This document shows positions 17,152 to 39,407 of a stretch of DNA of 64,000 nt, one piece after another (positions within the stretch are counted from its first letter, which is position 1; every line of letters begins with the position of its first letter). Source of the stretch: Callorhinchus milii (Eukaryota); contig NW_024704742.1 of the NCBI RefSeq assembly GCF_018977255.1, positions 16,308,001 through 16,372,000 on the forward strand. Direction: 5' to 3'. The position numbers were made by a program, and so were the translations under genes. The notes under the pieces are model-generated. The model saw nothing but the letters and a program-made list of their open reading frames with translations. It did no database searches and was not told the DNA's origin.

Positions 17152-18067
17152 GAACAAAAAATAAGGCATTGTAGTTGTGTAAACTGAAAAAAACATGTCA
17201 AAGGTCCTTCAGGAAACATGTAAAAGTGGACATTCTTGCCAATGAATACAGGCAGTTATGAGAGATTGACCTTCAACCACCCCCAAACTAAATAAAATTA
17301 TTAAAAAGCCAGTCTTAACACACTACCACCTCATCCTTTATTTCTCATGAATCAAGTTTATAACTAGGAAATGGTGTTTGGTAAAGTTACTTTAAAGAAA
17401 TAATAACTAGATTCAGAGTACATCAAATTGAAACTTCCTAAAGTAATTAGCAGACATTAAGTGTGAATTCTTATCTATCACCACTTCATAGTACCAGATT
17501 GCTCCTTATAGTAGTACATGTTGGTTTCAGTTTTCACTTGAAATTACCGCAAATAAAGGATTCATCTTGAATCTTCCTTCAGGCTTAGATCTTGTTCTGA
17601 AAGTCAATGCATTTAAAAAAAAATTCAGAATCATTAATTATTTTCTAGTCCCAATGCATTTTAAAAAAAAGTGTCTCAATGCATATTTCACTATAGCACT
17701 ATACTTTTCTCGTTCTCTGGTCTCAAACCTTGTACCTGTATCAGATGACTGCATGAAATGAACAAATTGTAACTCATGTTGCCCTTTTAATCAACAAAAA
17801 AAAATTCTGGCACTCGTTACGATGTGTGCTTGTGCAATTCAAATTTGTGATTTCAACATCACTTAACTTCCTGGACTCAAAACAACACACAGAAAATAAA
17901 GTTACATCTTGAAGAATTATTTCCCCCAAAAATCCAAGACTATTTCAAATGGTCATTAGGGATCCATACAAATATCCTCTCATAACATTGATCCACTCGA
18001 GTTGGAAAGGTATTTGTATATCAACACTCTTGGGGTTGTCTTTTCAATTCATTTATTCTTTCAATTG

Positions 18068-21000
18068 TCACAGCTCAACTGAGATGGGAGAAGAGAAAAA
18101 AAATATGAAGCCATAAGATATCCTACAACTAGGAAGCCATAAAAAAATTAGACTTAAAAAAAAGGACATCATAGTAAAAATAATCCTTGCATTTGATATA
18201 GCACCTTCCACGTTAGGAAGGCGTGAAAGGCGCTATATTTTGGCGTGGGACACTGCTATACGCAATTGGCTGCCGCGTTTTGCCAACAAAATATACAGTC
18301 AATTCACTTCACAGTATATTCTGTGAAGCGCTTTGAGACGTCTCAAAGACGTGATAAGGCTCTATATTAAATGTAAGGATTATTATTAAGGGTAATAATA
18401 AATTGAACCATAACAATAAGTTTAACATTGTAACAGATTTAAAAAAGACAGCACAGGCTCAAGCTCAGAAGAGTGAAGACAATGAAACAATGGATGCAAC
18501 CACTTTACACAGAGCTGAATATTTGGAATGGATTACTAAGTGAGGAATCAAATAGCTATTCGATGAAGAAAAATCTTTGCCAGAATTATATTAGAAACAG
18601 GGGAAAAGCTGCTTGAAGGGCAGAAGATTAAAACATTTTTTGTCTATTCCACTCAATTCCTTCACAATCACAAATTTGTAAAATGGATAACTTCAAATAA
18701 TTCAAAAATATACCTTCTTCTTCACTGCTGTGGTGGGCGGGTTTACTGTCACTGCAGAAGGCTGCTGGAAAGTGCAACTCTGTGGCCAGAGGCGTCTGCT
18801 CTGGAATCGGTTCAATTTCCTTCACTATCACTGCATCACCTACTGCTTCTTCCTCATCTTCTATACAAGTAAAAGACACACACAGAAATCTGTTACACAC
18901 TGACATCCATCTGTTCATCATTATCAAGGTATGTGATTCAAAAAGTGACAGCAGCCCTACAGAATTGATACCTTTAAGTCACAACAAAAATACATATAGA
19001 TTAAATACTTGTACAAATGAAGTACGCCAGGGTATTAAGCCATCTGGGCCATGCGTCGCAATGCAAACCTTAGAAGCTTTTGAAGAATTTCATATTTTTT
19101 TTAAACCAACAATCTCCCAGATAAAATTGCTAATTTACTTCATGGCTGTTTGTGGGACACTGTACATTTGTGTAAATTAAATGCCCCATTCACCTACAAA
19201 GATATATAGTCAATACACTTTACAGTATATCCTGTAAAGTGTTTTCAGATATCCTCACATCATGAAGGGCGCTATATGAAATACAAGGCTTATTAAGTCA
19301 AAAACTCTTCTACAAGGTTTACCTTGTATTGCTACTTGGTCAATTTCAGACAGGTCGCCGAGATTGTTCACGTTTGGGTCGGACTTTCCATTTACTCCTG
19401 AACAGTTTAGTCTCGCTTCTGGCAAATGACAAACCTCAACTGTGCTCTGCACGTTCTCGAAAACGTTCTTGAAAGCCAGAGCTGTCTCCTTTAGTTGGAA
19501 CCGCACAGCTAGATCTAGAACCATGGACTTCTCCTCAGAAAAATCCAGTGTACGCCAGGCCCAGCTGTCAAACCTGTTTTTTATTTGCCGCAGCTGCAGA
19601 TTTCTTGTGATCCAGTGGTTGGCACAGCATTTATTGACTGAGCTCCACATCACCACTCGAGATATTTTTTTTCTTTTATGTTGGAAAACTTTCATTTCGC
19701 CGACTGCTCGCTCCTTCCACTGTGAGGTGGGCCTGTCAAACTGATACAGCTTTGCCCTGTTAGAGAAGAGAACATCTTGATCTTCCATCTCTGAAGAGTG
19801 ATTAACTGGCGGGCAGGATGGCAGCATTTCCTGGGACTCACGTTTGCAGTTCCCTGTGTCGCTTGCATTGCTCTCTGACACATTAACTGGTTTATTTAAA
19901 TCCAGCTTGAACTGGAAAACACCTTCTGTCCCAAAGTTAAAAAGTGGACGATGAACAACAGGAGAAGCCAAAGGGGAGCCAGCTGTAATTGTTTTCTGAG
20001 CAGCTTCATCTTTTGGGCCATCATTCTGAACTTCCACCAAACTACTGCTGTCAGATGACACGGATGCAGCACTTGGCAGGACTAATGGAGATTGCCCTGC
20101 GTGGGACAAGGAATCCTGTGCAGAAGTGAATGCTTTTGGATTAATAAAAGCATTTTCTTTGACGAAGCTCTTAGCAGCAGCTTCCAGACAAGAAACATTG
20201 CTACTGGTGTTTACATTACTGAGGTAACATGCAGGATCTTTTTCATCTTCAGATGAACGCGGAGCTTTCATACCGCATATTTGATCGCCAAAAGCAGTAC
20301 CCTCTTTATCTGAACCATTAGCAGAACCCTCAAAGGGGTTTCCGAGAAATAAAGATGCTGTGCTACAAGGCTGCAATGATGAAAAGGATTTGATCTCCGA
20401 TACCAGTGACTGACCAGTTAAGGGCACTTCAAATGTTGAAGCTTCCTTTGGTTTAGCATCAGGATTTGGTGCGACAGAGTTTGGTTGCTGGCAGGCTGAT
20501 GAAAGATCCTTGCTGGGATTCACAGAAGTAAATGCCATGTGATTGGATATGGTTGAACTCGCAGCAGGCAAAACAAGAGGATTTTTGGCAGAAGTGGCAA
20601 ATTGAGGAGAGGCAACTGAGGAGTTACTGAAATTTGCTGTAATTACCACATGGTTAGATCTAGCTGAATCTGCTCTGCTAACAGTGGATGTTTGAGGAAT
20701 TAATGGCACTTCTGATATTGAGGCTATCTTTGGTTTGACAACATTACCTGCTGTTGCAATGCTGCTGGAGTGCTGCTTGGTCAGTGAGTGGCCCTCACAG
20801 GAATCCACCTGACTGGATCCAGTTGAATTGGTTGTGGAGAAGACGAAGGGAGATACAGCAAAAGAGGTGAAGAGAGGCAATGGTATTAAACTACTAGGAG
20901 TTGGGAGAAAATAGCTCGAAAAGCCTGGTAACGTTGAGAGGAGAGAGGATGAGGGTGGTGAGAAAGCTATCGTGGAAGCTGAAGCAATTGAAGAAACAGT

Positions 21001-24000
21001 GGTTGTGACATCACCTGCGCCTTCTTCCAGTTTGGAAGGAGGGGATGACACAGAGATAGATGAAACAGACTTGTTCTCTTTCAGGTTGAAAGTACCACTT
21101 TCAAATTTCTGAGTCAGCTTAAAGTCCTTGGACTCTTCCTTTGCTGCATCTGACTCAGAAACAGGAGCTGAACTTTCCCTGTTAGTTGCATCTGTACTTC
21201 CTGTGGCTGCTAGTTTTAGGGCCAGCATCGAAAAGGGATTAGGATCCATCATGGACTCAGAATTACAGGGTGTTGCAACGGAAAATACCGGTGCTTGTTT
21301 GCATTTATAAAATGTGGAAACAGGGGGACCAAACTTACAAGGCCCTGTTTTCAGCGAACTTTTGTTTATTTCACTTCCAAAATAAAAGATTGGCGCTGTA
21401 ATGAGCGAGTCCGCAGGTTGTGCGCTGGTAGCAATGCTAGACTTTTTGCCACTTTCTTCATCGATTTGCACCTTTGTAGATTTGATGGATGCATCACAGG
21501 CAGTTTGACTGTGGGTTTCAGACGTCAAAATACCAGTTGCGTTACTTGTAGCCGATTCTTTCTTTTCACATTTGCCAAAGGAGAAACCTGCCACTGCTGG
21601 TAATGTTTGTTGATTTGCTACTTTGTTGGCTGAAGTGCTATCAGCAGCCATTCCAAATCTGAAGGATGATTCATTGGACCAGTCAGATAACCAGAAGTCT
21701 CTAGGCTTACTGACCTGACCAGGTGGGGCTGCCCATGGTGGTAAACTAAAACCTGAATTGTTGGAGTCTTCTGATTTGGATATTGAGCTGGGAAGTTCAG
21801 TTTTTGTTAAACTCATTGCACTCAGAGTGATTGGGAGAGATTCTGTGACTTTTATTGTTTCCAGACTACTACTGATGCTTGTAATTTTCTCAGAATCATC
21901 CAAGATTGAAGGCGTAAGGTCAAGCTTCTGCTCTGGTGCACTGAACAACTTATTTAAGCCAAGGGGGTTGATGTCTTAGAGTCTCTCATAGGGAACTCTG
22001 AGTCAAGAGACAAATGCAAGTCTGAATTGCCTGCAGCCTGATCACAGACCTTTTTCACGCATCGACCCACTCTAAATTGCCTAGTGCCAGACTGTTTGGC
22101 ACTGTCATATTTTTTAAAGAAATCTTTAGAATTGTCAGAAGAAGACACTGCAGACGCTGCTAAATTTTCTGTATCCACCAGTTTTTCAGACACAAAGCAG
22201 TTCCAGTCTTTTCTGCAGGAATGATAATGGTTGTAGCGCAGTTCCTGTGAAGGCAACCAAAATATTTCCCATTGAGTAAAACAGTGAGAATATATTTAGA
22301 TCTGTAAAGAACACCAATTTATTTCTCAGTAAAATAGTCATTTCTAAGTAAAATAAACCCAGTGACATTTCACTGCAATACAAAGCCGTGTGCACAATTC
22401 CCAAACAATAAAAAACCCTCAATATAATTTTTTTTTAAAAATCACCTCTGCTGAACCTGTGAAATACTTCTGATCAGCAAATTCTTTGTTTAGTCTTCAA
22501 AATGTTGGGGCCCATTTCACAATACAATACAAATTTACATTTATATAGCTTTTCAAGTGGGGAGGCCATCCAAAGGTGCTTGACAGTCCGGGTTTTGCAC
22601 CCGAGCAGAGGGTGGTAGCCAAGGGGGAGTGGGGAGGAGAAAGATTACCGAAGGTGGGGCCAAAAAGGAAAGTCTTGAGACGGACCTTGAAAGAGTTGAA
22701 GGACAGGCAAATCAGAGGGAGTCCAGGATGGAGTTCCTGAGAATGGGGGCAGATATGCTAAAAGCCCAAAAGCCGATAATGGGGGAGGGAACATGAAGCA
22801 GATAGATATGCAGTACCTTGGATGACAGAAAATCTGTATTGAACTTAACAGAGATAAGCAAAAGTAAATGTAGAGTTTGCAGGTGGCATAAATAAAGTTC
22901 AAACTATTGTAGCGTTCAATCTGATAATATTTCTTTGAATCTCTATGGATGAACATGGATGTTGGGGATGGCTTTAATTTTATTTTTATGCAGTCTAAAA
23001 GCAATCAGTAGCACTTACCTCTAGAGTCATATTCTGGTATTCCTTCATTGCTGTCAAACAATAGTGATTGTGTTCCCCATGGGGGAATTCAAATTCAAAT
23101 CGCAATTGTGGCTGAAAGAGAATTTCTGTTTTTAAATGTAATTTTATTGTTGTTTTGTTTTCCCCTCCAATTTCCCTTCTTCTCCAAAGGCATTGTCTGT
23201 TGCCAGCACAAGGTTCGACACGCATCTAGCAACCTCAGATACACCTCCCCTCAAATTGATCATCCTGGATATGTGAGCATACACTGCAAGCTTGTGTGCT
23301 CTTTAACGACAGGGAGGTCATCACAGCTAAGTCTGACCCCGCCCTCACCAGAGGCTCAAAATCTCTCACAGTAAGCCTTAAGAACTGCAGAAAGCAGCTT
23401 CCAAATGAACAATGGATTTTAAAATTGTTCAAATTTCTGCACAACCTTACATCTTAAAAATAACAATGTTGAGGTTAAGATCATAAGATATTTTGACATT
23501 TAATAATAGCCCATGAGATGTTTGGGGCCTCTGATGTTGACATATTGGATATTCAAGAACGCTGGCTGATTTTCCCCTCCCTAACCCAGAAGTGTCAGGA
23601 CCAAATTTAGCCCTCCTACTGTTGCCCTTGCTGAGATCTGGTAAGCTCTTGAATCTGGAGCTTCCAGGTCTGGAAAGCTCAATTTCACATCAGGTACTAG
23701 TTTTAATAACTGAGTTGGTGGGAGCCAAATTGAATTTAAAAGATAAAAAAACTTGCTTTGCTTCAAGAAAAGCTGTGAATCACAATATTCTGGGAGCATT
23801 CCGTTTTTAAAATAAGCTGCAAAGCTCGTCACAGAAGCTTACTTGAAACTCGACGTGTGTACCATCCTTTGGCTGCTTCCATATTTTCAACAGTTTTTTG
23901 AATTTGTAACCATCCGTGTGGTGTTTACCCGCAGAATGATCAGTATCTGGAAGAAATACACCACAGAGCGTGATCAGTCTTGCCACTCAGTCTCCAATAC

Positions 24001-27000
24001 TTTGTTTTTAATTAACAACCTGTATTTTGCAAAGAAATTAATTGAAAGCTACTGTAGGTTTTCAACACAGAAGAGGCTGTTGATCCCATTGGCTCTATAA
24101 AGGTGTTGAGATAAAATAGTGCGACGTTTTTAAAAATAAACTGGCTAGGACTGGCTAGATGGACTACAATGGTGTTTTTTTTGTCCTATTCATTCACGTT
24201 TCTATATTAGCATAAACTCATGCTGGTTTGAATTGTTCACAAGTTTTTTTACTCCTGTAAAATATTTTCTAGGTTGCACCTTCAGGTGTTGGTTGATAAA
24301 AATAAATGCATCGAGGTAATAACAACAATCCTTGCATTTGATATAGTGCTTTTCACATCTTCTAGACGTCTCAAAGCACTTCACAGAACATAGTGCAAAG
24401 TGATTTATTTGTGGGCGAAACGCGGCAGCCAATTGTGCACAGCAGTGTCTCACAAACAGTCGTGGATTGAAGTGACCAATTTTATTATTTTGTTTTTCTT
24501 GAGGGATTAAGTACAACCTAAAATACAACTTATACATTACATTTTATTCAAAGCAATCCCCTGGTAGTGGGAACATTGCTTCCAGCACCAGATCAATCCT
24601 CAATTACCATGTTTATGGAACAAGGCAATACTTTTCTTGCTAATCCTATTAAGTAGCTTGCATTGTAACAAACACGCATTGAAAGTAATAGTAATCCGCA
24701 GTTGACAGGTTTGGCTTTATTTTACAATAACTCAAACATAAATTAATACAAGTTTAGTGATTCAAATTTTACTACTGATTTATCTTCATCGAGAAAAAAT
24801 CTAATGATCACTGAAATGCTTCTAATAAGGTTACCCTCTGATAGTGTACTTACACACAGAGCAAACAAACACCACAAATAAAAGACAAAGCATTACCAAC
24901 AGGGTCAAAAACAGACATTCTGCCGAAGGTTCCAAAATGTGATGCTCAAAACATGGCATTATTTTCTATCGTAGTTTCTTTAGCGTTCTTATTTTTCCCT
25001 CCATTATTGTCCTCCTCTGCTGAAAGCCCTGATTCACACTGAGGTGGCCACCCTTTATTAACTCGCTTAACCCTACCTTCATCCAACATGCACCCACATG
25101 CGTGCGCATGCACCCACGCACACACACACACAAAGTTCCTGAGTGAGGTGAGTTCTAACATAATTTTGCCAGCTTCCACCATTTTATAGATGGCAAATGA
25201 AGTTTAATGTAGGAAAATGCAAAATAGTTCCCTTCAGCGAATAAAGAAGCCGTTTATAGTCTGGGTTCATGACTACTGGCAGCAGCAAAGCAAATGAGTA
25301 TTGATTCTACATAAACAGCTAACGGAAGTGGTCAATCAAGAATTGTCTCTGCATTTTATAACTTCCACATCAGATATGAAGATGATTGCTCTGAATTACG
25401 TGAGTGTAAAAGCACATCATTACTTGGAGGTGGGTTAGTGGAGGCTGTGAGAAATCTGACTTTCCCCTAGTCATCTGTACAATCTGTACAATTCCCCCAA
25501 ATCTTTTTGTGAATCATTGGGGTTGAATTCGTGACTGGTGTCTATCTGTATCTTGCTGGTATAAAATATATTTTATCCCAGCAAGAGGCGGGAGGATTGT
25601 CTCATCTCCACTTGACACCTCATGTGGAATTTAGTTCAGGTGTCAGCTTGGCTCAGTTGGTTGCACTCTCGCCTCTAAGTAAAGCAAGTGGGTTTGAGCC
25701 CCACATTGGGACTTTGAACTCGTAGTCCAGGCTGATTCTCCAGTGCACTATTGGAGATGCTGTCCTTCAGATGAGACATTAAACTGTCGTCTCCGTCTGT
25801 CTGTTCAGATCTCTGTTAACGATCCCTTGGGACTATTCAAAAAGAGAAGAGAGTTTCTCCCACTGTCCTGGGCAACAATCTCCCAAATTAAATTTGTCAT
25901 TCACTTCATTGCTGTTTGTAAAACATTGCTGTGCGCAAATCGGCTGCTGCATTCATCTACAAATATACTGTCCCTACACTTCACATTAAAATCCTGTGCT
26001 TTGAGACATCTGAGATGTGATAAGGTACTTTATCAAATGGAAGGATTATTACTTATATCAGAAACTCAGGATGTGCAGAAAGGTGAGCTACACACATACA
26101 TCTTGCCACTCAAGGGTACATCTTGAGGTTCTAGAATACACATCTCTCGCTCCTTCAATTGAAATGGGACTAAAGAACCTGGAGACCGATAGCAGCAAGA
26201 AATAGTTCACTTGCGATAACGGAACTAGTTCCAAGGTAAACTACGTGGAGTCCTGTAGCTCAGTGGTTAGAGCACTCGCTTTGCAAGTGAGAGACCTGAG
26301 TTCAATTCCAGGCAGAGGGCGAAACCTTGGGCAAGTTTCCTTACTCCACACAGAGCCTAATAATAATCCCTCCAAAACCCAAAACAATAATAAGTTGGTC
26401 ATTTTCAATCTACGACTGTTTGTGGGACATTGCTGTGCGCAATTGGCTGCCGCGTTCGCCCACAAATATTCAAATAGTCAATTCACTTTACAGTGTGTTG
26501 TGTGAAGCACTTTGGGACGTCCTCCCGACGTGAAAAGCGCTATATCAAATGCAAGGATTATTATTATTATTATTACTCCAGCAATTGTAGACGTCACACA
26601 ATCATGCACTGGACAAGACCACAAAATATCTCAAAACAAATCACATCAGGAACATTGTTTTTCTGTTAAAATGTGAAACAACACAAAAATAAAAGTTAAT
26701 CAATGGAAACCAAATAGCATACCTGAATTCCAAGTAGGTTCTTTTATCTCAGTTAATTCAAGTTCAGAGATGCTATCCAGCAAAGGCGTTATTAAAAACT
26801 GTCTTGGTGCAGGACCAGCAAATTCACCACATTTCTTAAAACTAGGCATGACAGCAAGGTTGCTCTTCACTCTTGTGAAAAAAGACCAGGTAAAGATACC
26901 AAAAAGTATGATTATAAGCAGCAATTGCAACAACCTGTTCTATAATTTTCAAGAGTAAGCTACCTTACTGATAAACACATTTGATATCTTCCTAACAAAA

Positions 27001-30000
27001 CAAGACCCACAGCAAGAATTTTGAGTTCATGTTCACTTCAAAACACCGACCAGCACGCAGGAAGCTAAATGGCTATGTATTGATCATCAGTTCACCACCA
27101 AAATAACTTCATACGCACTGAAATATGGCAGTTACCATTTTGAAATGCCGATGGAGCCAGCTACATACATTTGCAGCGAACGCAAAAACAGCGAGTGGAA
27201 ATTGCACCCCATTTTCATGCCCTATTTGGACTCTCAAACCACCCCATTATAATGGAGCTCAACGGTATTTGTTTTATGGAAAGGCAGGTTTGATAGTGTG
27301 GATGACATTTTCTCAATCTATGCTTCAAGTTATGCAAAGAGGTTACAACAGATGAAAAAGTCACCTGAACATTTATTATAAGAGTTCAAGCTCCTATTGC
27401 ACAGTCAACTAGTAGCAGTTGAACTCCTTTCCTATCTCCTATGGCAACATGTTAATTCTCCAATACACTGAGTCATATTTAGTGTTGTATTTCTTCCAGG
27501 TCAAAGTGAGCTGTAAATATCCATTGGTGAAGTTAGTTATTATTAGGATGGTCTCCTAACGGGATAGCAGAATGTCTGGATGTTAAGACATGCCGATCAA
27601 CGATAACTTGGGAGTCTTCTGTCAATCGCAATTTGAATCCTCCCATCTATATCCAGGAGCCCCTCGTGGCTGAATGCAGCCACTGGACAAACAGAAGGCC
27701 CGAGCGAGTACATTCAGCAGCGACCAGCGCGGCATTTTGCCCCGAGTAACCTGGTTTTCATCCGAATTAATTGGCATATTTAAAATAGGTAAGAATACAA
27801 ATGAATTGGGGCCGTGCGTTTTGTTCGATTTACCCGTTTGGGTTAACTGCCTTGGGACCTTGGGACGTCCTCCCGACGTGAAAGGCACTCTACAAATGTA
27901 ATCTTGTTGTTTTTGTTAACTGGCATCCAGCAAAAGCGCACTCCACAGTGTGTGTATAGATATATATATATATATTTAAAAGATGTGGGAAAAAGAACTG
28001 AAAGTAACAAATAAACCAAGACATCTAACACGTCAAATGGGATTTGTAAAAACTTGAAGCATAAAAGTACAATTACCTTTCGTTTAAGTTACAAGCCACC
28101 TGTGAATGAAAGAACAATGTGTTGAATGGGGTACAGCAGAATTATGTTACCTCTAATTATTACCTCTTATTTCCCTTCTTAGCTTAGAAAGTGTTAAATT
28201 TTATGGAAATCTCACATCTACTTTCAACTCTCCGGAACACTGTTGTGGAGAGCCTCCCAGTCCTTCTGGCAGCATCTACAATTCTAGACCAGATGATGTG
28301 AGTTGGGAAATTAGGTCACAGCAGGGAAAGAACCAGTGGAAAACAACAAAATCATTACAAAAAATACGGTTGTTCTTGAAGCTTGACGGGTAGTTCAAAC
28401 TAACACTGAGAGCCTTCAATGGATAAGGGTGAGCTCATTGCGGTTCTCGCACACACTCATGGCGTTTACACTGCAGGTCGCACCAGTCCTAAAAACACTT
28501 ACTCTAAACAGTGCAGGAGTGACGCTTCAGCATGATTCCCATTGTCTGAAGCCGATTATACCTATCAGGCTGAACATGCTTGGACTCTTTCCTCTTGAAA
28601 AGAGCAGGGTAAGGGGTGACCTGATAGAGGTCTTTACAATGATGAAAGGTTTTGATAGGGTAGACATAGGGAAGATGTTTCCACTTGTGGGGAGACCAAA
28701 ACCAGGGGCCATCAATATTAAATAGTCACAAATAGATCAAATAGAAGAAAGAAGAAATTTCTTCACATAGAGGTTAGTGGAAATGTGGAATATGCTACCA
28801 CAAGGAGTTGTTGAGGCAAATCACAAGGATGTATTTAAGGGAAAGCTAGATAAGTACATGAGGGAGAAAGGAATAGAAGGTTATGCTTGAAGGCTTAGTT
28901 GAGGAAGGGCAGGAGGCTCATGTGGAGCATAAACACCGGCATAGACCAGTTGGCTGAATGGCCTTTTTCTGTATAATATATTCTATTTTAGCTGCAAGTT
29001 TAGTAGAATTTCATCATCAAACTCATGGTAATTCATTGCCCAGAGTGCACATTCCAAGCTATCTCTGGGATTTCCATGTGTAGTTGGGATGCATGGAATT
29101 CTCAGTTTGGTTTGGATACTCTTAAGCATGGTGATGAGCTTCCACATGTGTCTATCCAAAAAAAATGCAGCAAACACGGTATACTCAGGCAGCAGGGGAT
29201 CCATAACTCAGCTTTTCATTAATGCGGTTTACTGAATGGTATCGGTAGGGCTTAATGCTTTTTGCAGTGTAAAACCAGCAGGACTCTGAGGGGAATGAGA
29301 TGATGTGCCTTCACTAGGTGCTCTACACATACTTTCAACTATTTTTCATCTTTGCATTGCTTTGAAGAGGAACATGAACAAGAAGAAACTATTCTCCTTT
29401 TCTTTCTCCCCTTTGTCAACCACGTCGCATAACCTACCATTCACTATCCTTTCTAGCAAGATCAAACAAATAAACATTGAGTTAGTGTGGTCAGGTCATT
29501 TCCCTGTGCTAGTCACAGTATTTTCATGAAATCCTCTAAAGAATATTAAGTTAATCTCTGAAGGGCAACACCTGTTACACAACCTTCAATGAAGGTTCAA
29601 AGTGGTGAGAAAACGGTATACAACAGTATACAAGATTTCAGACACACTGGTAAAAAAAAAATCTCATATTTTATGTGTTTTCACCCCCTCTTTCCTAAAG
29701 TTTCTGAACCAGGATGGATTTATATAGAAACTGGCCACCATTCAGTCCATTTCCAAAGTAACCATTCCTGACATTCACGGCCAAGCAACTGGCCAGTAAT
29801 AGCTGACTGTCGGGAGTGTAAGGAGCTTCACAACTCAATACCTACATATTTAAAGGAGGATCATTGGACAGTTTTCAGAAGTGAGAACTCTGATAAATTA
29901 TTTTTTTCTTCCTCTCTTGCTCAGAAGCACAGAGGCAAATTTTAATTGACCAACACGACCTAAAATAACCTCAGATAACTCAGTGAAGACAACAGACCAA

Positions 30001-33000
30001 CATCGAGCCCTCCTTGTTTGTAAGACTTAATTCCACATGAGACAGTGCCAGTGGATAACAACAAACTTCAATCGTCCTTAACCCATAATAAACATGGATC
30101 TGAGCACTCACAAGAGACCTAAATAAAAGTTCATGAACAGGAAGGCAAAAAGCTAATGTTGTGACTGGTAACTTATTTCCAATAACTCTACTGCAGTTCC
30201 TCTTCACAATTTTCATCAACCTGAGTATTTGCACAAAAAGACTTGGAAGCAGCTTTTTAAACAAAATACAATGACTTCCAGTACAATTGGTTGCATAATT
30301 GCTGAAAAGAGTGAATAAGACAAACCTTACCATGAGAAAGTTGATGGGATTGCATTCATTCACCAGTTTCTCGCACTCCTGCAGCTGCTCTACGACAGTT
30401 CTCTGTTGCGATCGCCTTCTCTCCAATCGAGCCTTGCGTTCACACCACTTCCACTCCTTCTCCTTCTGAATCCCATCCAGCAGCTTCTCCTTCTTCAATT
30501 GGACTCTCTTCAAAATCTGATCAAACTTGGTCTTTACCATCTCCTCCTCGTACTCTAAAATGTTCTAAATAAAGGAACACATCAATCGTGCATGTTGTGC
30601 CTATACTTCTTTTTCGATCACCTGAGAATCTGACCCGAGTAGAAACCCAGCACCCAGCTTAAGAGTTTTCAAACTAAGCATGAACATTTCTCTGCCTGGA
30701 ATAATCCTAGCGCGATCTGTGGATGGATGCATTCTGCTCATCAAATTCCAGAAAGTATGAGATTCAGGTTGCGGAGAGTCAAGGCTTGATGACTCCAAGC
30801 CTTGGCATGTTGGGGGTTCTGCCCGGAGTTTAACCAGCTAAAACCACATAGCTTGCCACTGAATTGTAAGCTTTGTTTCTTGTCTAGGTAGGTCAATGCT
30901 ACCTATTAAGTCTTTGGCTTGCAGGTAACAGGACTCAAGTGGGAAGAATTCCTCCCCCTCCAAATCCTGCCAATGGGCCAGGCTGGCTGATCTGTCATCA
31001 GCGGTGCCTCGGAGTACCCTGGACCCATCTGGCTCAGGAACTAGATGACTAAGACCACCACAGAGATCTAACATTCTATTGCTAAACATGTCAACTTGCA
31101 ATCAGTTTCACCATTTACATTCACTAAATTTAAGAAATATAATTGATAAATATCCAACACTTTCTGATGCCTTGAATCAGAATTCTGTCTTGGTCTACCT
31201 ACAGTATGCATGTAATTGGGAATTCAACAGTAATTGGGGAATGTAGCATTTATATGAATTTTATTGATTGGAATGATTCTCACAATCTGAATTCAGTACT
31301 AAAAGTTAATGTGTTGATAGTCTTGTGTGAAATTACTTTCCTGGAAATTTAAGTACGCATTGTAGAAATTCAGCAGATTTACACAAAGCGAGTCATTAAA
31401 ATTGCCCACCTCCACTTCTACCTATCCCCTCAGGACACTAAAACGCTCATCCCTGCCTGCTCACCAGATCCACAGCTCTTCCCTACACAGGCTGTAGACT
31501 GTCAAGAACTCTGTAACATGTGTCCTCTCCTGCTCCTCGAACACATCACCCCATCCTCGTTCAGCTCCACTGGCTCCCCACTCCCTGGTGGATTGAATTC
31601 AAGATCCTCATTCTGACCTCAAATTCCTCCATGATCTTGCCCAGCTTACCTCAGCAACCTCCTTCAAGCCTATCGACTCGGCTGTTACCTTCACTCATTA
31701 AACTCTGGCCTGCTTCATGTTCCCTGCCATATCCGCCCAACTTGTCGACAAGTGGGCTTTTGAGATATTCTATCCCTTATCTGTGGAACTCCTAGCCTGG
31801 AATCTCTCCGACATGCTCCCTCCCCTCATCCAAAGCCAATCTGAAGACATTTGACTGTGCTTTCGGTCATCTTTCCTCTTCCTACCACCCTCAGTTCCAA
31901 ACCTTGCTCGACTGCCCAGACAGCAGTGTCACATGCTTTGAGATATCCCCCTGACAAGAAAGATGCATATTGTATAAAGCAGCAGACAAAATAGATAACA
32001 TTTAACATAACAAAGTGCAGATGGAAAGAGTGATCTGGAACAGAGAAGATCTGGTCCACCTTGCCCAACAATCCAATGGAAACTCTGGGTCAGTATCCTT
32101 AGAAGTCAAGGCACTTCCTACCTCTTTAACAGATGGATTGTCAGAAATTTCAGTCTTCATTCTGTCATTTAATTGCCTCAGTTCCTTCAGGTTATTGAAG
32201 AAAGCAAGCTGAAAAAGAGAGGGAAATGGTTATCCTTTTCCATTTAGCAGGCATGGAATGCAAAACGGCAAGCATTTACTCTGATTTATCTAGCGCTTTA
32301 GGATAAGCATTCAATCTCAACTACATGCCAACATAAATAGGCAACACACTCCCAGACAGGTAATGTCCTCACCAATTTCATCGCCTCGCAGAAATAAATT
32401 TGGGACTATTTTTCCCTTCTCCCAGGCACTGGTGCTACTGTTACCCTCTGTGTTTTATGTGCACATGTGTTTATGTGTTTTTTTGTGGAGTCCTGTAGCT
32501 CAGTGGTTAGAGCACTCGCTTTGCAAGTGAGAGACCTGAGTTCAATTCCAGGCAGGGCGAAACATTGGGCGAGTTTCCTTACTCCACACAGAGCCTAATA
32601 ATAATCCCTCCAAAAAACAAAACAAAAAAAAATTATAATAAATTGGTCATTTTCAATCTACGACTGTTTGTGGGACATTGCTGTGCGCAATTTGGCTGCC
32701 GCGTTCGCCCACAAATATACAGTCAATTCACTTTACAGCGTGTTCTGTGAAGCGCTTTGGGACGTCCTCCCGACGTGAAAAGCGCTATATTAAAATGCAA
32801 GGATTATTATTATTATTACCACTTGATGACAAGTAGGTATCATTATAGCCAGTTCTGATGCTGCGTGTCCCCAAAGTCCAGAAGTGGTATTTGCATAAAG
32901 CTCGGGTGTGGAAGCCCTGGCTGATTTTCTCCTCTTTAGCTGAGAGGTACTGAGGCCATTTGTAACTCCACTTATACATACTTGGCCATAATCAAATAAC

Positions 33001-36000
33001 TTGTCACAGACAAGGAATCAAACTTAGAACCTCTGCAGTGAGTTTGTCTCAACTACTGCTTGCTGAATAAGTAATGCCTCTTTCATTGCTAAAGCTGTAC
33101 CTTTGACTGTATGATTCTATCTCTTGCACTACTTCGAAAGTGTATTGGATGCTTTTTGTACAATAAAGTAGTTCAACTATTAGTCTGATATCACAACATG
33201 TAGGTAGCACTGTAGGTAAAAACACACACATCAAACACTATTCCAGCAAACGCACCAAAAGTACCAACACCAAAGTCATGCATGTTGACTAAAGCATGCT
33301 TCATATAACTGAAGTCCTTTGTCACAAGTTCCATGATATGAATATTCTATCATCTGGAAGTGATGGGATAAGTGAGTTAAATGAAGGGCTTGAAAAGATT
33401 ATTCACAACATGATTCACTATTAGTGACTCAGTCAGTTACTGGGAATTCAGTATTGCACAACAAACTATTTCCCTTCCGTTCCTACAGCGCAGGGTTACG
33501 CAAATTGACTGTAACATACTACCTCTTAATCTTCAGGATTCCTTGTTAAAAATTCTGAGCTGCTACAATATTGATAATTCCCATTGAGAACTACCTTTTT
33601 TTCCCCGATCCCACGTAGTAATAATAGAACAGTATAATGCTAATTTTAAAATTTCAGAGGCTGGACAGTACCCACCACTGCTTCAACTATTAGTTTGTCT
33701 AGGGCACTATTTTTCAGGCTCAAATTTAAATCTATTCAGAAAATCTGTCCTGGTTATGCTACAAGCTTTCAGAAGCAGCTGCACTGCCATTTTCCTCAAA
33801 CAATCAGCAAACTCAGTGAATCTGCATGGTTAGTTTTATTTTTTTAAATTAAAATTAAACCACAATTATAAACAGGAGACTAAAACAAAACTGCTTTCTC
33901 ATCATTGTAGCCAACTGTTGTTGCAGGAACTCACTCCTAATTGCAATGTTTGGGACGTCCTCCCGACTTGAAAGGTGCAATACAAATGTAATCTTGTTGT
34001 TGTTGTTCCCTGCTTAACGTGCCAGATTCAGCCCATTTCAGAGGCAGGTCAGATTTTTATGTCAATCCAACTTCCGAAAACATGGCTTTTGACATCCTTG
34101 TACAATGCAGCTTAAGTGCAGTCACTGCACAGCACATCAGTTACTGTGGAATCATTCTCTTACACACATTGCAATGTGCAACTGACTATCAGGTTGTTTA
34201 TTTATTGTTAGTGCTTATTCCCTCTCACCCCCACCTCATCTAGGATGTCCTCTCATCAACAACAAAATTACATTTATAAAGCACGTTTCAAGTCAGGAGG
34301 AAATCCCAAGGCACTGGACAGTTTAGGGTTTGCACCCGAGCTGGGGGTTGGAATCAAGAGGAGTGGGAAGGTGGCCGAAGGCACGGTCAAGGAGGAAGGT
34401 TTTGAGATGGGCCTCGAAGGAAGCAAGGGAGAGGTGAGACGGATGGAGTTTCCAGAGGATGGGGGTAAAGGCCTGACCGCTGCCAATAGTAGAAAAAAAA
34501 CTGCCAAAAAAAACTCATTAAGAGCGAGAAAATGGAGTATGAGGGTAAGCTAGCTAAGAACATTAAGTCTGATTGTAAAAGTTTTTACAAATATATTAAG
34601 AGGAATAGGCTAGTGAGGGTAAATGTAGGTCCACTTGAGTCAGACGGGAGAAGTTGTAATGGGGGATAAGGACATGGCAGAGTCCCTAAATGGGTACTTT
34701 GCATCTGTCTTCACCCTAGAAGACACAACAAGTCTGCCAACAATAGGGATGTATCAAAGGGATAAGGACAGGGAGCAACTTAGGGAAATTTTCATTAGTA
34801 GAGAATTGGTGCTAGGGAAACTGTTAGCACTAAAAAGTGACAAATCCCCTGGTCCGGATGGCTTGCATCCCAGGGTTTTAAAAGAGGTAGCTTATGAGAT
34901 AGTGGAGGCCTTATGTATGATCTTCCAAAATTCCTTGGATTCTGGAACAGTCCCCATGGATTGGAAGATCGCAAATGTCACACCACTATTTAAAAAAGGT
35001 GGAAAGAAAAAGATACAGAACTATAGGCCAATCAGTCTCACATCAGTGATAGGAAAAATTTTAGAATCGTTGATTAAGGATGTGGTAGTGCGGTATTTAG
35101 GGACACAATATAATTAGGCCAAGTCAACATGGCTTTACAAAAGGGAAGTCATGTTTGACAAATCTCAGAGAGTTTTTTGAGGATATTTCCAGTAAACTAG
35201 ATAAGGGTGAATCAGTGGATGTGGTCTATTTGGACTTCCAGAAGGCATTCGATAAGTTGCCGCATAATAGGTTAGTCCAAAAGTTAAGGGCCCATGGAAT
35301 TGGGGGGAGCATATTAACGTGGATTGGGGAATGGTTAACTGGTAGGAAACAAAGAGTAGGGATAAACAGGTCCTTTTCAGATTGGCGGGTTGTGACTAGT
35401 GGAGTGCCACAAGGATCAGTCCTTGGGCCTCAGCTATTTACCATCTACATCAACGATCTAGATGAGGACATCGAAGTTAATATATCTAAATTCGCAGATG
35501 ACACAAAACTAGGAGGAAGTGTTGTTGAGTTGTAACTTTTTCCCCATTCGTCCCAACCGTTGTCTTACAAACAGACCATACACCGTGGATATATCCAATG
35601 TTGAGATTTAATTGCAATTAAAAGAGCTGATTCAAGAACAGTCAACAGTCTCCCCAGTCTCCCAAGTAGAGCACCTGACAGTCCAAAAGAATGAGCTGCT
35701 TTTGGTCAGTTAAAGCAGCCTTTTTATCCCCAAAAGTGCTCAAGGTCATAAAGCATACAAAGGCAATTAAAAAAAACATTATCAATCATGTGGTTCCAAC
35801 AACTATTCGAATGGTGACGTCAATCAATCTATATCTCTAAACAAGGTTAAATGTCATCTACTTAATTAGTATCTATTCGTGTTGATTATTATACTTTAAA
35901 AAATCAATCAAATATAATTGGCATAAAATATGTACCTGATTAATACCGTTGTCTAAAGTATACAAGATATAATCTAAAGCTATCTAACAAGAATACAACC

Positions 36001-37950
36001 TTTAAATTTATAACACAGAGTAAGAAATAATGAGGGAAGGGAGCTCAGGTTAGGGGAGGATTCAGGGATGTTAGAGGCATAAGCTTATCTCCAGATGGTG
36101 TTTGTGTCAGACAATGTCATATTCATTTCAAAGTTACAGAAGTTACTGCTCCTCTGCTTCCATAGAATGTCCAGCCAGATAAGGATGTAGCTGGCATTGC
36201 CAAGTCTGAGTTTTCCCAGGACTTGTTTTTTTAATGTTTCAGCTAATGTTTGATTTAAAAAGGCATACAATTATTTCTAGGTATAAAAAAAATTCTACAA
36301 TTTCACTACAATTTCATTACAATTTCACTACAATTTCATTACAATTTCACTACAATTTGACATTGTCAGCACAAAGGACGACATTAAAAAAATGCATCAA
36401 GACATAGATAGGTTAGGTGATTGGGCAGGTAGGTGGCAGATGAAGTATAATGTAGGGAAGTGCGAAGTCATCCACCTAGGTAGCAAAAACAGTAGAGCGG
36501 GTTTTTTTTAGAAGGGGAGAGACTGGAATGTTTTAGCGTCCGGAGGGACTTGGGTGTCCTTGTACACCAATCACAGAAAGTTAGTCTGCAAGTGCAGCAG
36601 CAATCAGGAAGGCGAATGGTATGTTAGCATTCATTATGAAAGGATTAGAGTATAAGAGTAGGGAAGTCTTGCTGCAACTGTATAGGGCCCTGGTGAGACC
36701 ACACCTGGAATACTGTTTGCAGTTTTGGTCTCCTTATTTAAGGAAGGATGTACTTGCCTTGGAGGGGGTGCAGCGTAGATTTACTAGGTTAGTACCAGGG
36801 ATGAAGGGGTTGAGTTACGAGGATAGGCTGACCAATTTGGGCCGATATTCTCTAGAATATAGAAGAATTAGAGGGGATCTTATAGAAACCTATAAGATCA
36901 TCAAAGGTCATGATAGAGTAGATAGTGGGAGATTGTTTCCCCTGGTTGGAGAAACTAAAACCAGTGGTCACAATCTTAAGATTACAGGCCAGCTCTTTCG
37001 CACTGAGTTGAGGAAGAACTTCTTCACTCAAAGGGTGGTGAATGTATGGAACTCACGCTCAGTCCTTGAACATATTCAAGACTGAGATAGATAGATTTTT
37101 TATTGCAAAAGGGATTAAAGGATATGGGGATAAGGCAGGGTTATGGTATTAGCTGGAGTTAGATTAGAAGATCAGCCATGATTGAATGGCGGGGCAGGCT
37201 CGAAGGGCCGAATGGCCTACTCCTGCTCCTACATGTTATGTTATGTTAGTACAGGCAAGGCGGGGGACATGGAGCAGACCAGTGCCCGCCGAGCGGAAGG
37301 AGCAGACAAATTGGTATGGTATGCCATGCAGGCTGTTGTTTGGTCTGTTGTGCTGGTGCAGTGACGGGGCTGACCGCCATCGCTTTGCATTTAAACAGTA
37401 CCTTCTCCTCCTGGTAGGTGACGTCCACGAGGTTGACGGAGTGGAAGACCCCAGTGTGCTCCTCAGACACGCATTGGCCGCAAGCAGCCAGTTTGCAGAC
37501 CTTGCAGAAGAGCTGCATGTCTCTGTGGGAGTGCTTGGAGCACAGTGCCCGCAGCCCAGCGCCCCCCTGCCCTCCCGCAGGGGAGCCGCTCCGCAGCCCA
37601 TCCTCCTCCTCCTCTACCTCCCCCTCCTCCAGCAGACACACCCCATGGGCAGAGCCACAGCCACCATCCCTCTGACCCCTGAAGATCTTGACCACTTCCA
37701 GCAGGGTGGTGTTGACGGACAGGTTGGCCGCTCCCTCGGGGATGAAGTTGTTTTTCCTGCACAGAGGACACTCCAGTTGGCTGTTGCTCCAGATGTTGCC
37801 GTCCCCGGCGCTGCTCCAGTCCTGGCCGCTCAGGGACCGGGTCACACACTCCAGGATGCATTTCTTGCAGAAGTTGTGGGAGCAGACGGGCAGCGTGACG
37901 GGACTCTCAAACACTGACAGGCACACAGCGCACGTCAGGCTGGCCTCCAT
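18068..37950 (-). CDS. TRIM (RING-Bbox-coiled-coil) / nucleoporin chimeric protein: RBCC + GLEBS + FxFG region + RanBD + IR1-like motif
   Basis: Phase-compatible GT-AG exons: 37950-37402, 32208-32122, 30564-30331, 28099-28077, 26871-26723, 23946-23843, 23111-23019, 22244-~22071 (or read-through to a frameshift near 21960), 21948-19323, 18860-18714, 18078-18068 (TGA). About 1,400 aa. Confidence 0.8.
18714..18860 (-). CDS. RanBP2 IR1-like exon ([28 protein letters not shown]...SSEEE)
   Basis: 147 nt, phase 1-1; resembles RanBP2 [29 protein letters not shown]...SEEEE. Confidence 0.82.
19323..21948 (-). CDS. giant exon: Ser/Thr-rich FxFG region and Ran-binding domain (about 19444-19785)
   Basis: 2.6-kb open frame; [24 protein letters not shown]...QWKERAVG...CANHWIT...W...DFSE...LAVRF...FKNVFE; donor CAAG|gtaaac. 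Confidence 0.9.
21954..22244 (-). CDS. exon starting ELRYNHY (end of GLEBS); frame closes at TAA 21954-21956 unless spliced or frameshifted
   Basis: tcacag|GAACTGCGCTAC; candidate phase-0 donors at 22070 (AGA|gtgggt) and 22049 (AAG|gtctgt). Confidence 0.75.
   Translation of the reverse strand, partial: ELRYNHYHSCRKDWNCFVSEKLVDTENLAASAVSSSDNSKDFFKKYDSAKQSGTRQFRVGRCVKKVCDQAAGNSDLHLSLDSEFPMRDSKTSTPLA
23019..23111 (-). CDS. GLEBS-motif exon ([31 protein letters not shown])
   Basis: ctctttcag acceptor, GAG|gtaagt donor, 93 nt; [12 protein letters not shown] resembles Nup98 [16 protein letters not shown]. Confidence 0.85.
23843..23946 (-). CDS. exon ending ...KDGTHVEFQ (start of GLEBS region)
   Basis: tttcttccag acceptor, CAA|gtaagc donor, phase 1-0, open frame. 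Confidence 0.75.
25640..26052 (+). mobile_element. old Deu-domain SINE (SacSINE1/AmnSINE1-like)
   Basis: tRNA-like head, then gatccc.tgg.actattc..aagag...gagtt.ctccc..tgtcctgg core; decayed copies at about 11830-12110, 12920-13300, 42530-42760(-), 51680-51897(-), 54990-55410, 58500-59180(-), 62870-63120, 63740-64000. Confidence 0.75.
26245..26575 (+). mobile_element. tRNA-derived SINE, short young subfamily
   Basis: A/B boxes, tRNA-Ala(TGC)-like arm, near-identical to copies at 32485, 40124, 50633, 59615. Confidence 0.92.
26723..26871 (-). CDS. TRIM exon 5, linker ([10 protein letters not shown]...[16 protein letters not shown])
   Basis: phase 2-1; pyrimidine tract plus aag acceptor; CAG|gtatgc donor. 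Confidence 0.75.
28077..28099 (-). CDS. TRIM exon 4, 23-nt mini-exon (VACNLNER)
   Basis: cacag|GTGGCTTGTAACTTAAACGAAAG|gtaatt; a 23-nt phase 0-2 exon after the coiled coil is characteristic of many TRIM genes. Confidence 0.8.
28565..28980 (+). mobile_element. CR1 3' fragment
   Basis: [28 protein letters not shown]. Confidence 0.85.
30331..30564 (-). CDS. TRIM exon 3, coiled coil
   Basis: 234 nt, phase 0-0, E/K/R/L-rich, ends NPINFLM|gtaagg; size typical of TRIM coiled-coil exons. Confidence 0.88.
31400..31980 (+). mobile_element. decayed L2 3' fragment
   Basis: [17 protein letters not shown] remnant. Confidence 0.7.
32122..32208 (-). CDS. TRIM exon 2, coiled coil ([20 protein letters not shown]...)
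   Basis: tttttcag acceptor, GAG|gtagg donor, 87 nt, phase 0-0. Confidence 0.85.
32485..32818 (+). mobile_element. tRNA-derived SINE, short young subfamily
   Basis: same head, body and tail as the 26245 copy. Confidence 0.92.
34488..37248 (+). mobile_element. CR1 LINE, 5'-truncated, decayed RT, interrupted by a solo LTR
   Basis: [61 protein letters not shown]; several frameshifts; (ATGTT)n tail. Confidence 0.95.
35523..36362 (-). mobile_element. solo LTR nested in the CR1
   Basis: TG...CA ends with imperfect inverted termini; TSD GTGT/TTGT; removal restores CR1 frame [22 protein letters not shown]. Confidence 0.75.
37402..37950 (-). CDS. TRIM exon 1: C3HC4 RING + B-box2
   Basis: [10 protein letters not shown]...CSHNFCKKC...CPLC (RING); CSKH...[13 protein letters not shown]...H...H (B-box2); good Kozak context GTGATGG; donor AAG|gtactg. 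Confidence 0.93.
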
Positions 37951-37959
37951 CACACCACA

Positions 37960-38500
37960 CCACACTCTCTCTCTCTCTCTCTCTCACACACTCACTCTCT
38001 CTGTCTCACACCCACCCATTCAACCTCTCTCTCTCTCTCTCTCTCACACACACTTTCTCTGTCTCTCTCTCTCTCTCACACTCACTCTTTCTGTCTCTCT
38101 CTCTCACACTCACTCTCTCTGCCTCACACCTACTCACTCTCTCTCTCACACACTCACTCTCTCTCTGTCTCACACTCTCTCTGCCTCACATCCACACTCA
38201 CTCTCTGTCTGTCTGTCTGTCTGACACCTACACTCACTCTCTCTCTCTCACACACTCACTCTCTGTCTCACACCCACCCATTCACCCTCTCTCTCTCTCT
38301 CACACACTCACTTTCTCTGTCTCTCTTTCACACTCACTCTCTCTGTCTCACACCCACACTCTCTCTCTGTCTCACACTCTTTCTCTCTCACACACTCACT
38401 CTCTGTCTGCCTCTTTATCTCTTTCACACTCACTCTGTCTCTCTCTCTCACACTCTCTCTCTCAGTCTCTCTCTCACTCACTCTCTCTCTCTCTCTCTGT
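37960..38500. repeat. compound (CT)n/(CA)n microsatellite directly upstream of the TRIM ATG
   Basis: visible dinucleotide tracts. Confidence 0.95.
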
Positions 38501-38570
38501 CAGAGGGGAAGCGGAAGCAGGAAATGACCTCCAACAAAATGTGAATCTCTCAGGGTCACTGGTGCCGCGC
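38500..38570 (-). promoter_or_regulatory. candidate core promoter island of the TRIM gene
   Basis: short unique segment between the two repeat arrays with clustered ETS-type GGAA cores (GGGGAAGCGGAAGCAGGAAATGAC). Confidence 0.3.
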
Positions 38571-39407
38571 CCCCCCCCCTCCCCCCCCTCCCCCCAGTCA
38601 CTATACACCCCCTCCCCCCCTCCCCCCAGTCACTATACACCCCCTCCCCCCCCTCCCCCCTCCCCCCAGTCACTAAACACCCCCTCCCCTCCCTCCCCTC
38701 CCAGTCACTAAACACCCCCTCCCCCCTCCCCCCCCTCCCAGTCACTAAACCCCCCCTCCCCCCCAGTCACTAAACACCCCTCCCCCCCCTCCCCTCCCAG
38801 TCACTAAACACCCCTCCCCCCCCCCAGTCACTAAACACCCCTCCCCCCCCCCAGTCACTAAACACCCCCTCCCCCCCCCCCCCCCCCAGTCACTAAACAC
38901 CCCCTCCCCCCCCTCCCCCCCAGTCACTAAACACCCCCTCCCCCCCTCCCCCCTCCCCTCCCCCAGTCACTAAACACCCCCCTCCCCCCCCCCAGTCACT
39001 AAACACCCCCCTCCCCCCCCCAGTCACTAAACACCCCCTCCCCCCCCCCCAGTCACTAAACACCCCCCCCTCCCCCCCCCCTCCCCCCCAGTCACTAAAC
39101 ACCCCCTCCCCTCCCCCCCAGTCACTAAACACCCCCTCCCCTCCCCCCCCTCCCAGTCACTAAACCCCCCCTCCCCCAGTCACTAAACACCCCTCCCCCC
39201 CCCCCCCCCCCCCCCCCCCCCAGTCACTAAACACCCCCTCCCCCTCCCCCCAGTCACTAAACACCCCCCGTCAAAAACCCCCCTCCCCCCAGTCACTAAA
39301 CTATCCAACCCCCCCCCCCCTCACCACCTCGCCCCACACCAGGGGGGTCGGGTATGAGTGCCTGGGGGGGGGAATTCCCCCCCCCAGGCACTCATACCCG
39401 ACCCCCC

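Follow-up and report, generated by a model that had tools for sequence, protein, structure and literature searches.

We analysed a 64,000-nt stretch of the Callorhinchus milii contig NW_024704742.1, hereafter called the window, and all window coordinates are given as positions within it. On its minus strand lies a gene of nine coding exons, running from 37950 down to 17562, which was delineated by mapping the database model P0010 on the window with tblastn and by inspection of the splice contexts. The product comprises, from the N-terminus, a RING finger, a B-box, a coiled coil, a GLEBS motif, a serine/threonine-rich (S/T-rich) region with four FxFG motifs, a Ran-binding domain (RanBD) and a segment encoded by an IR1-like exon. 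According to profile and sequence comparisons, three of the exons together encode a homologue of the GLEBS motif of the nucleoporin NUP98, and the host protein is predicted to be a TRIM-like RING-type ubiquitin ligase.

A NUP98-type GLEBS motif spread over three exons

The motif is encoded by exons 5, 6 and 7 (Table 1), which on inspection of the sequence are bounded by canonical ag/gt splice sites and whose two junctions both fall between codons (phase 0). Exon 5 ends with ..GAG TTT CAA/gtaagc (protein ..DGTHVEFQ; in sequences a slash marks an exon border), exon 6, with its 93 nt or 31 codons, is bordered by ttcag/CCA CAA and CTA GAG/gtaagt, and exon 7 opens with cacag/GAA CTG CGC (protein ELRYNHY..). 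The exact peptide formed across both junctions is present in the database models P0008 and P0010, while an older model, P0001 (isoform X2, 1416 amino acids, aa), skips exon 6. Four public sequencing runs (X1, X3, X9 and X11) were aligned on the window region 18400-27100; X1, X9 and X11 are taken as RNA-like because their contigs are spliced, and X3 as genomic DNA because its contigs pass unspliced through the introns. Contig 24 of X9 joins 26723-26871, 23843-23946, 23018-23111 and 21145-22243. A contig of 4781 nt from X1 spans exon 4 to exon 8; exons 5 and 7 are separated in it by 94 unlisted letters, and the depth of 5.84 over the bin 22765-23055, or 44.8 x 38/291, matches the value predicted for exon 6, so that this contig, too, covers the exon. 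The joint between 18860 and 19323, with CT..AC ends (GT..AG on the coding strand), occurs in X1, X9 and X11 and is absent from X3.

The spliced model P0008 matches the Pfam profile PF21240 (Nup98_GLEBS) with 29.1 bits (E 1.1e-6; gathering cut-off 27 bits), residues 397-420 lying on profile positions 16-39. Taken by itself, exon 6 stays below the cut-off (22.7 bits, E 1e-4) and in the PDB matches only four distinct sequences, all of them Nup98 GLEBS chains (E 0.066-0.22). A PF21240 search of the whole 991-Mb genome returned seven places at E<=10, of which NUP98 alone is above the cut-off (68 bits, contig C4) and exon 6 comes second (21.8 bits), the remaining five having E values of 0.87-5.7; the same search gave a match in none of the 14 control genomes. 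A profile built from 26 relatives finds the Nup98 GLEBS chains 7vpg_B, 4owr_B, 7byf_B and 3mmy_B in the PDB at E 1.1e-9 to 1.6e-9 over chain residues 5-56, ranking next after TRIM3 and TRIM2. The pair of glutamates (EE) corresponds to E413-E414 and is divided by an intron, as in NUP98. The original prediction had proposed, from the DNA letters, that three exons are spliced into a Nup98-type GLEBS peptide. Its splicing part is borne out by the canonical sites, the phase-0 junctions, the two database models and X9 contig 24, with the middle exon joined to exons 5 and 7 in the RNA-like contigs, and its naming of the motif by the above-cut-off profile score, the PDB matches at about 1e-9 and the conserved EE, R and Y. 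A paralogue of NUP98 as a whole was considered as well and ruled out: P0001, P0008 and P0009 give no Pfam match to Nucleoporin_FG or peptidase S59, i.e. to GLFG-type or autoproteolytic C-terminal domains.

The NUP98 gene of the same genome (locus L001) has an exon ending in ..TAPNGTTIKFN/gtgagt, followed by one of 108 nt (cag/36 codons/gtgaga) and by a third that begins with cag/ELRLEDYTAGRKG.. (also given as cag/ELRLEDYTAGRKGPQ..). Both of its introns are in phase 0; one follows F-[QN], the other separates the two glutamates, and in the alignment they coincide with the introns of the window gene, so the proposed match of the introns FQ/P and LE/ELR to those of NUP98 holds in the animal's own genome. 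Pairwise MAFFT alignment of exon 6 with the NUP98 exon places the gap in the N-terminal arm arbitrarily, and the family alignment was used instead. The similarity reaches a few residues into the flanking exons, as P-x-(x)-G-T-x-[VI]-x-F-x upstream and ELR-x3-Y-x3-RK downstream, and is weak (24%) in the upstream exon beyond its last ~8 residues.

Since homology extends into both flanking exons, it is a three-exon genomic segment that would have been captured, and not a single shuffled exon. The notion of DNA-level exon shuffling from NUP98 thus stands as regards a genomic, intron-bearing source and the exclusion of convergence and retroposition, and gives way as regards the unit that moved. The motif is short and exon 6 by itself stays under the Pfam cut-off, which might suggest a resemblance by chance or convergence, or a retroposed NUP98 mRNA. 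However, a retrocopy would be intronless, the family profile matches Nup98 chains at E of about 1e-9, and donor and recipient share two introns that agree in aligned position and in phase; two such exact coincidences within about 55 codons are not credible as chance, and we regard any of these origins as practically impossible. Homology to NUP98, together with descent from an intron-bearing genomic copy of the NUP98 segment, is on these comparisons close to certain. NUP98 is taken as the donor because the GLEBS motif exists from yeast onward, in yeast Nup116, and is described in the available text of two papers as conserved from yeast to humans (PMC2133102; PMC3783196). The capture, judged by the spread of the family, precedes the split of cartilaginous and bony vertebrates and is not a recent event of the Callorhinchus milii lineage. 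In an early jawed vertebrate, an intron-bearing piece of NUP98, made up of a complete exon and the adjoining ends of its two neighbours, would thus have been joined to a RING/B-box/coiled-coil gene.

The gene, its family and its RANBP2-derived modules

Older database models describe the locus as one protein, P0010 (1447 aa, with exon 6) or P0001, both named 'RanBP2-like'. In the current RefSeq annotation it is split into a 509-aa 'TRIM63' (P0008), identical in sequence to the window, and an 891-aa 'RanBP2-like' protein (P0009). The split is an artefact: a homopolymer is one G short in the assembly, and a false stop results. Behind position 21962 an extra G is present at full depth in all four runs (44.8 of 44.8, 25.3 of 25.3, 3.93 of 3.93 and 9.21 of 9.21). 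With G6 restored, ..TSTPLA-stop reads on, a single open reading frame leads from the RING to the RanBD, and exactly the older 1447-aa model results. The downstream part, a 906-codon frame at 19258-21975, is 98% identical to a Callorhinchus milii database protein whose cluster has four members. Two genes, one ending at the stop 21954-21956 and the other starting from an internal Met, are what the assembled letters and the current models suggest, and this arrangement is nonetheless very improbable: all the read sets, the DNA-like X3 included, carry the base that fuses the frames, 55 open codons precede the first Met of the second frame and reach back to the break, the 4781-nt contig of X1 runs across it, and the fused architecture is found in five other cartilaginous fishes. 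The host gene encodes one protein of 1447 aa and is not two genes.

Table 1. Coding exons and selected features of the gene in the window
Feature	Position	Strand	Content	Support
Exon 1 (3' end approximate)	37400..37950	-	Start codon, C3HC4 RING (C7,C10,C23,H25,C28,C31,C61,C64 of P0010), B-box	tblastn, P0010 residues 1-186 at 37950-37393; Pfam on P0008
Exon 2	32122..32208	-	Start of coiled coil	tblastn; tttttcag/CTTGCT..AAAGAG/gtagga
Exon 3 (3' end approximate)	30331..30564	-	Coiled coil	tblastn, 100% over residues 213-291; splice context
Exon 4	26723..26871	-	End of TRIM-like region	tblastn; joined to exon 5 in X1 and X9 contigs
Exon 5	23843..23946	-	Last residues align with NUP98 ..APNGTTIKFN; phase-0 intron follows	X1 and X9 contigs
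Exon 6, 93-nt cassette	23019..23111	-	GLEBS core; last codon is the first E of the EE pair	X9 contig 24; X1 coverage; skipped in P0001
Exon 7	19323..22244	-	2922 nt in the window, 2923 with the missing base; opens with the second E, then S/T-rich region with four FxFG, then RanBD	Joint 18860/19323 in X1, X9, X11
Homopolymer G5 (C5 on coding strand)	21963..21967	.	G6 in four read sets; false stop at 21954-21956	
RanBD	19444..19791	-		Pfam Ran_BP1, 107 bits, residues 729-844 of the 906-aa frame
Exon 8	18714..18860	-	RanBP2 IR1-like segment, flanked by phase-1 introns	Spliced to exon 7 in X1, X9, X11
Last coding exon	17562..17596	-	..EQDLSLKEDSR, stop	Search with P0010 tail; ctttcag/AA CAA GAT

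The N-terminal part of the protein has the composition of a TRIM family member. P0008 matches the Pfam profiles zf-C3HC4 (31.2 bits, cut-off 21) and zf-B_box (26.1 bits, cut-off 24.1), the C3HC4 RING is complete, and RING, B-box and coiled coil follow each other in the TRIM/RBCC order. Residues 131-300 align with the B-box and coiled coil of TRIM3, the TRIM3/TRIM2 region is also matched, and the family profile finds TRIM3 with E 1.9e-14, while the TRIM_CC profile stays below its cut-off in the relatives.

The C-terminal part resembles another nucleoporin, RANBP2. The RanBD is clear (PF00638, 107 bits, cut-off 23.2), and exon 8 scores 15.2 bits against the IR1-M profile (PF12185), below the cut-off of 25, while the four shark and ray relatives scanned reach 55.5-67.7 bits. 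In the RANBP2 gene of the same genome (G000:C4:63169104-63190381) three RanBDs lie in one 1463-codon frame, a fourth lies beyond, and IR1 and IR2 each occupy an exon of their own (63179865.. and 63183852..). The window RanBD is closest to the last RanBD of this giant exon (102 bits, versus 94 and 87 for the others), which has the IR1 exon downstream. That IR1 exon (..ttag/AT GTA GAT..GAG GAT G/gtaaga) and window exon 8 (..atag/AA GAT GAG..GAA GAA G/gtatat) are both bounded by phase-1 introns and align as ..V-x-I-V..P-x-P-E-Q..A-x-E-L..P..F-x-C..K-P..S..E-E; the shared introns and the alignment together argue that this second nucleoporin piece was also moved with its introns. The Pfam matches to RanBD and IR1-M are confined to the cartilaginous-fish members, and phmmer with the C-terminal half matched 6 of the 34 rows, all cartilaginous. 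The RANBP2 modules may be an acquisition of the cartilaginous fishes, or the bony vertebrates may have lost them.

Searched exhaustively with HMMER, P0008 retrieved 395 proteins at E<=1e-3, 34 of them also at E<=1e-30; 20 representatives were looked up by name, and a search with the family profile gave 180 matches at E<=1e-20, of which the best 120 were inspected. The family includes members from at least a dozen cartilaginous fishes, coelacanth, a caecilian, salamanders, frogs (Xenopus laevis and X. tropicalis among them), turtles, alligator, lizards, snakes, many birds and echidna; there is no teleost and no therian mammal among the best 120 of the 180 profile matches, which hints at a loss in these two groups. 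Database names are inconsistent: 'uncharacterized', 'TRIM59-like', 'TRIM63', 'TRIM75', 'serine-rich adhesin', 'mucin' and 'Midline-1' all occur.

A MAFFT alignment of 33 members preserves the pattern F-x/P..[IL]-[ST]-x-M-x-E-[YF]..S-x-E/E-[LV]-R-[YL]-x-x-Y. The middle exon has 36 codons in frogs, as in NUP98, and is exactly missing in six of the 33 aligned rows; the short isoform of the coelacanth diverges directly after ..LE. The aligned rows fit a common exon structure across the family. The alignment A1 of 26 sequences, from cartilaginous fishes to birds, has E413 as its sole invariant column out of 2000, with P383, G394, S/T411, E414, R416 and Y420 at least 90% conserved, in the midst of a tail that cannot be aligned. 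The family profile covers residues 5-56 of chain 3mmy_B, and tetrapod members retain P-x-x-G..[LV]-x-x-G. In sharks and rays the central TAMKEY block has drifted to ..WCISAKDEYQDMSLEELRY... Pfam matches on a few amphibian members are already in databases. Among the matches of the representative search, P0061 (1343 aa) has eight consecutive Nup98_GLEBS matches (268.7 bits) and P0118 (245 aa) has two, which may reflect a true tandem repetition of the GLEBS unit or a fault of assembly.

Upstream of the gene and on the opposite strand, 45191-48559 (+) holds an open 1123-codon frame of a long interspersed nuclear element (LINE), with endonuclease (54 bits) and reverse transcriptase (126 bits) matches, and intron 1 harbours reverse-transcriptase element fragments at 34629-35532 and 36585-37082 (+), with an RVT_1 score of 76.6 bits for 35101-35532. 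Pfam searches with seven other open reading frames of the window yielded only LINE reverse transcriptase and endonuclease matches. Directly upstream of exon 1, at 37961-39720 and 40615-40840, lie CT-dinucleotide and C-rich tandem arrays, with units of 24, about 29 and about 20 bases containing ..CCCCAGTCACTAAAC.., which account for the strong negative GC skew at 36-40 kb. Copies of a very abundant tRNA-like short interspersed nuclear element (SINE) were found at 24220-24510, 25966-26547 and 40121-40405, and also in the NUP98 locus L001 (1100-1300 and 2580-2720); their read depth rises to hundreds of thousands in all four runs, and they are the reason for many false joints in the read tables. 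An open frame at 5619-5945 (+), without a Pfam match, resembles an exon of a Ski2-type helicase.

Proposed docking to Rae1 and competing readings

In Nup98, the salt bridges of E201/E202 with Rae1 R216/R172 are named as crucial contacts in the excerpt of PMC3783196. Co-immunoprecipitation with RAE1, as given in the consulted part of PMC2133102, showed that NUP98(181-224) suffices for binding while 150-186 does not, and that deletion of 192-221 abolishes it. The C-terminal half contained in NUP98(181-224) is the part conserved in the window motif. On the side of the receptor, the Rae1 gene was located in the genome by a motif search (L008), and R172 and R216 are invariant in 16 vertebrate Rae1 sequences. 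The modelling of the peptide with Rae1, which had also been proposed, was carried out by folding Rae1 P0200 together with residues 368-430 of the window protein, the family alignments not being used. The model scored 0.82, versus 0.01 for the best of three controls, a level reached by 51 of 78 solved complexes and by two of 108 mismatched pairs; this pass conveys likeness to solved complexes and not binding, and it may reflect memory, because Rae1-Nup98 GLEBS complexes are among the solved ones. Contact agreement between runs was at least 53% and the predicted local confidence (pLDDT) of the partner at least 41. The confident interface involves partner residues 409, 411-417 and 419-421, with E414 placed on Rae1 R172 and T411 on R216.

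If this arrangement is correct, the motif would dock the WD40 propeller of Rae1 via its C-terminal arm T411-H421, with E413 and E414 set against the conserved arginines. A dimeric ubiquitin ligase would thereby be placed on Rae1-containing mRNA-export or mitotic complexes, or would compete with NUP98 for Rae1. The 93-nt cassette could act as an on/off switch, as skipping of exon 6 removes the first E and the whole core and should therefore yield a non-docking isoform. In cartilaginous fishes the RanBD would add contacts to RanGTP, and in sharks and rays IR1 would probably add contacts to SUMO-RanGAP1/Ubc9.

A number of observations speak against docking, or at least against its generality. PF21240 is found at E<=0.01 in four of the 33 family proteins scanned and above the cut-off in one of them (P0020), and at E<=0.01 none of the four shark and ray representatives P0011-P0014 matches it. 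In Callorhinchus milii itself the N-terminal arm of the motif does not align to PF21240 positions 1-15, and exon 6 has 31 codons versus 36 in NUP98. None of the 24 public runs is recorded as RNA, the RNA status of X1, X9 and X11 being deduced from spliced contigs alone. In the complex model the pLDDT of the partner is low (42-43), with only the C-terminal arm confidently placed, the Rae1 used is a bony-fish stand-in, as full-length Rae1 of Callorhinchus milii was not among the matches listed, and such a test cannot separate Rae1 from its paralogue Bub3. The ligase activity of the protein and its place on Rae1 complexes are predictions. Taking these points together with the conservation of the motif, we assign a probability of about 0.65 to the reading that the 1447-aa TRIM-like RING E3 ligase carries a functional copy of the NUP98 GLEBS motif, docking to Rae1 included.

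Part of the remaining probability belongs to the paralogue, since the motif might be real and conserved and yet dock Bub3 instead of, or besides, Rae1, which would make the ligase a mitotic-checkpoint factor. Bub3 binds GLEBS-type motifs of Bub1 and BubR1, so that Bub3-binding motifs of this kind are known; a pass in the complex test leaves the identity of the bound family member unspecified, and the TAMKEY drift in sharks and rays points the same way. Against this, the shared introns and the exclusive profile matches to Nup98 chains derive the motif from NUP98 and not from BUB1, and the modelled contacts use those Rae1 arginines that the excerpt of PMC3783196 names, so that we consider a Bub3 partner unlikely. 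The ligase could also be a guard or decoy that, with a Rae1-GLEBS surface on its TRIM scaffold, would trap and ubiquitinate viral proteins directed against the Rae1-Nup98 hub, in the manner of TRIM5-cyclophilin fusions. TRIM proteins with a captured host-factor domain are known. Several viral proteins bind the Rae1-Nup98 GLEBS, according to the consulted parts of PMC7604486, PMC9376891 and PMC8790125, and mammalian TRIM34, in the excerpt of PMC13189347, interacts with RAE1 and affects antiviral mRNA export. The key residues, however, are strongly conserved and exhibit no arms-race turnover, the idea finds no support in interferon induction, positive selection or copy-number expansion, and the databases appear to show roughly one gene per species (which is not a per-genome copy count). 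We hold such a role to be somewhat less likely still than a Bub3 partner, and the same low credence goes to its broadest form, a 'nucleoporin-mimic' TRIM ligase that would guard the Rae1-Nup98 mRNA-export hub in jawed vertebrates except, apparently, therians and teleosts, with the bait turned on and off by the splice switch. In that form the ligase, equipped in cartilaginous fishes also with the Ran- and SUMO-machinery modules of RANBP2, would display the Rae1-GLEBS surface targeted by viral export blockers and would ubiquitinate anything that binds there.

Finally, the GLEBS-like stretch could be a relic without any docking role, in a gene for a TRIM ligase with a disordered tail. The diverged N-terminal arm and the shortened exon 6 of Callorhinchus milii, the sub-threshold Pfam scores of most relatives and the skipping of exon 6 in some models would agree with decay. 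Yet the single column that 26 sequences hold invariant is E413, with E414, R416 and Y420 close behind, inside a tail that otherwise defies alignment, which renders a relic the least probable of these alternatives to a functional Rae1-docking motif, if by a small step.

Relation to known systems

Neither the motif nor any of the domains is new; what is new is the architecture, its genomic origin and the breadth of the family. No TRIM or RING protein with a GLEBS motif is described in the titles, abstract openings and single passage from which the literature was judged, and the matches listed for NUP98 and GLEBS, seen at the same depth, include no 'exon shuffling' paper. Mouse, human and zebrafish are absent from the matches listed for the family, which may be why no paper describes it; Xenopus and birds do have members, so that bench tests of the hypothesis are feasible. 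Very few proteins are known to contain a GLEBS motif, and that of NUP98 anchors Rae1 and is targeted by several viral export blockers. If the proposed function is correct, an E3 ligase family with a conserved NUP98-derived GLEBS motif would couple ubiquitination directly to the Rae1 hub. The gene also illustrates clearly how modules can pass from one gene to another without losing their introns, from NUP98 once and from RANBP2 at least in cartilaginous fishes.

The closest counterpart of the motif is the GLEBS of NUP98/Nup116 (PF21240; solved with Rae1 as 3MMY, 4OWR, 7BYF and 7VPG), with which it shares the profile, the EE pair, the R, the Y and the two phase-0 introns, and in the model it occupies the same Rae1 surface. 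It differs in lying behind a RING, a B-box and a coiled coil and not within the GLFG repeats of a nucleoporin, in its diverged N-terminal arm and shorter exon, and in that its core exon is an alternatively skipped cassette. The GLEBS motifs of Bub1 and BubR1 are short EE-containing hairpins that dock Bub3, and like them the window motif is a candidate EE hairpin for a Rae1-type WD40 propeller outside NUP98; the Bub1 and BubR1 motifs were matched by none of the searches made here, and the window motif, in contrast to them, is NUP98-derived.

As to the scaffold, the TRIM E3 ligases (nearest solved members TRIM3 and TRIM2; 8amr, 8ams) likewise have a complete C3HC4 RING, a B-box2 and a coiled-coil region, whereas in place of PRY-SPRY, NHL, COS or another usual C-terminal domain the window protein carries nucleoporin-derived modules and a long S/T-rich tail. 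RANBP2/Nup358, with its chimeric partial duplicates, the RGPD genes of primates, is the nearest system for the C-terminal part: collinear with the RANBP2 of this genome, the window gene has its RanBD closing a giant exon, and the next exon encodes IR1 and is flanked by phase-1 introns; compared with RANBP2/Nup358, the window gene has one RanBD, no zinc fingers and no cyclophilin domain, and its IR1 is degenerate here and strong in sharks and rays. The fusion of TRIM5 with cyclophilin A (TRIMCyp) is a recent, lineage-specific product of retroposition, whereas the capture described here kept its introns and is ancient. TRIMCyp and the TRIM34-RAE1 pair (PMC13189347) nevertheless offer the nearest functional parallels, as TRIM scaffolds that capture or contact a host nuclear-transport factor; for TRIM34 no GLEBS is reported in the excerpt of that paper, and the window protein would make its contact through a motif taken from NUP98 itself.

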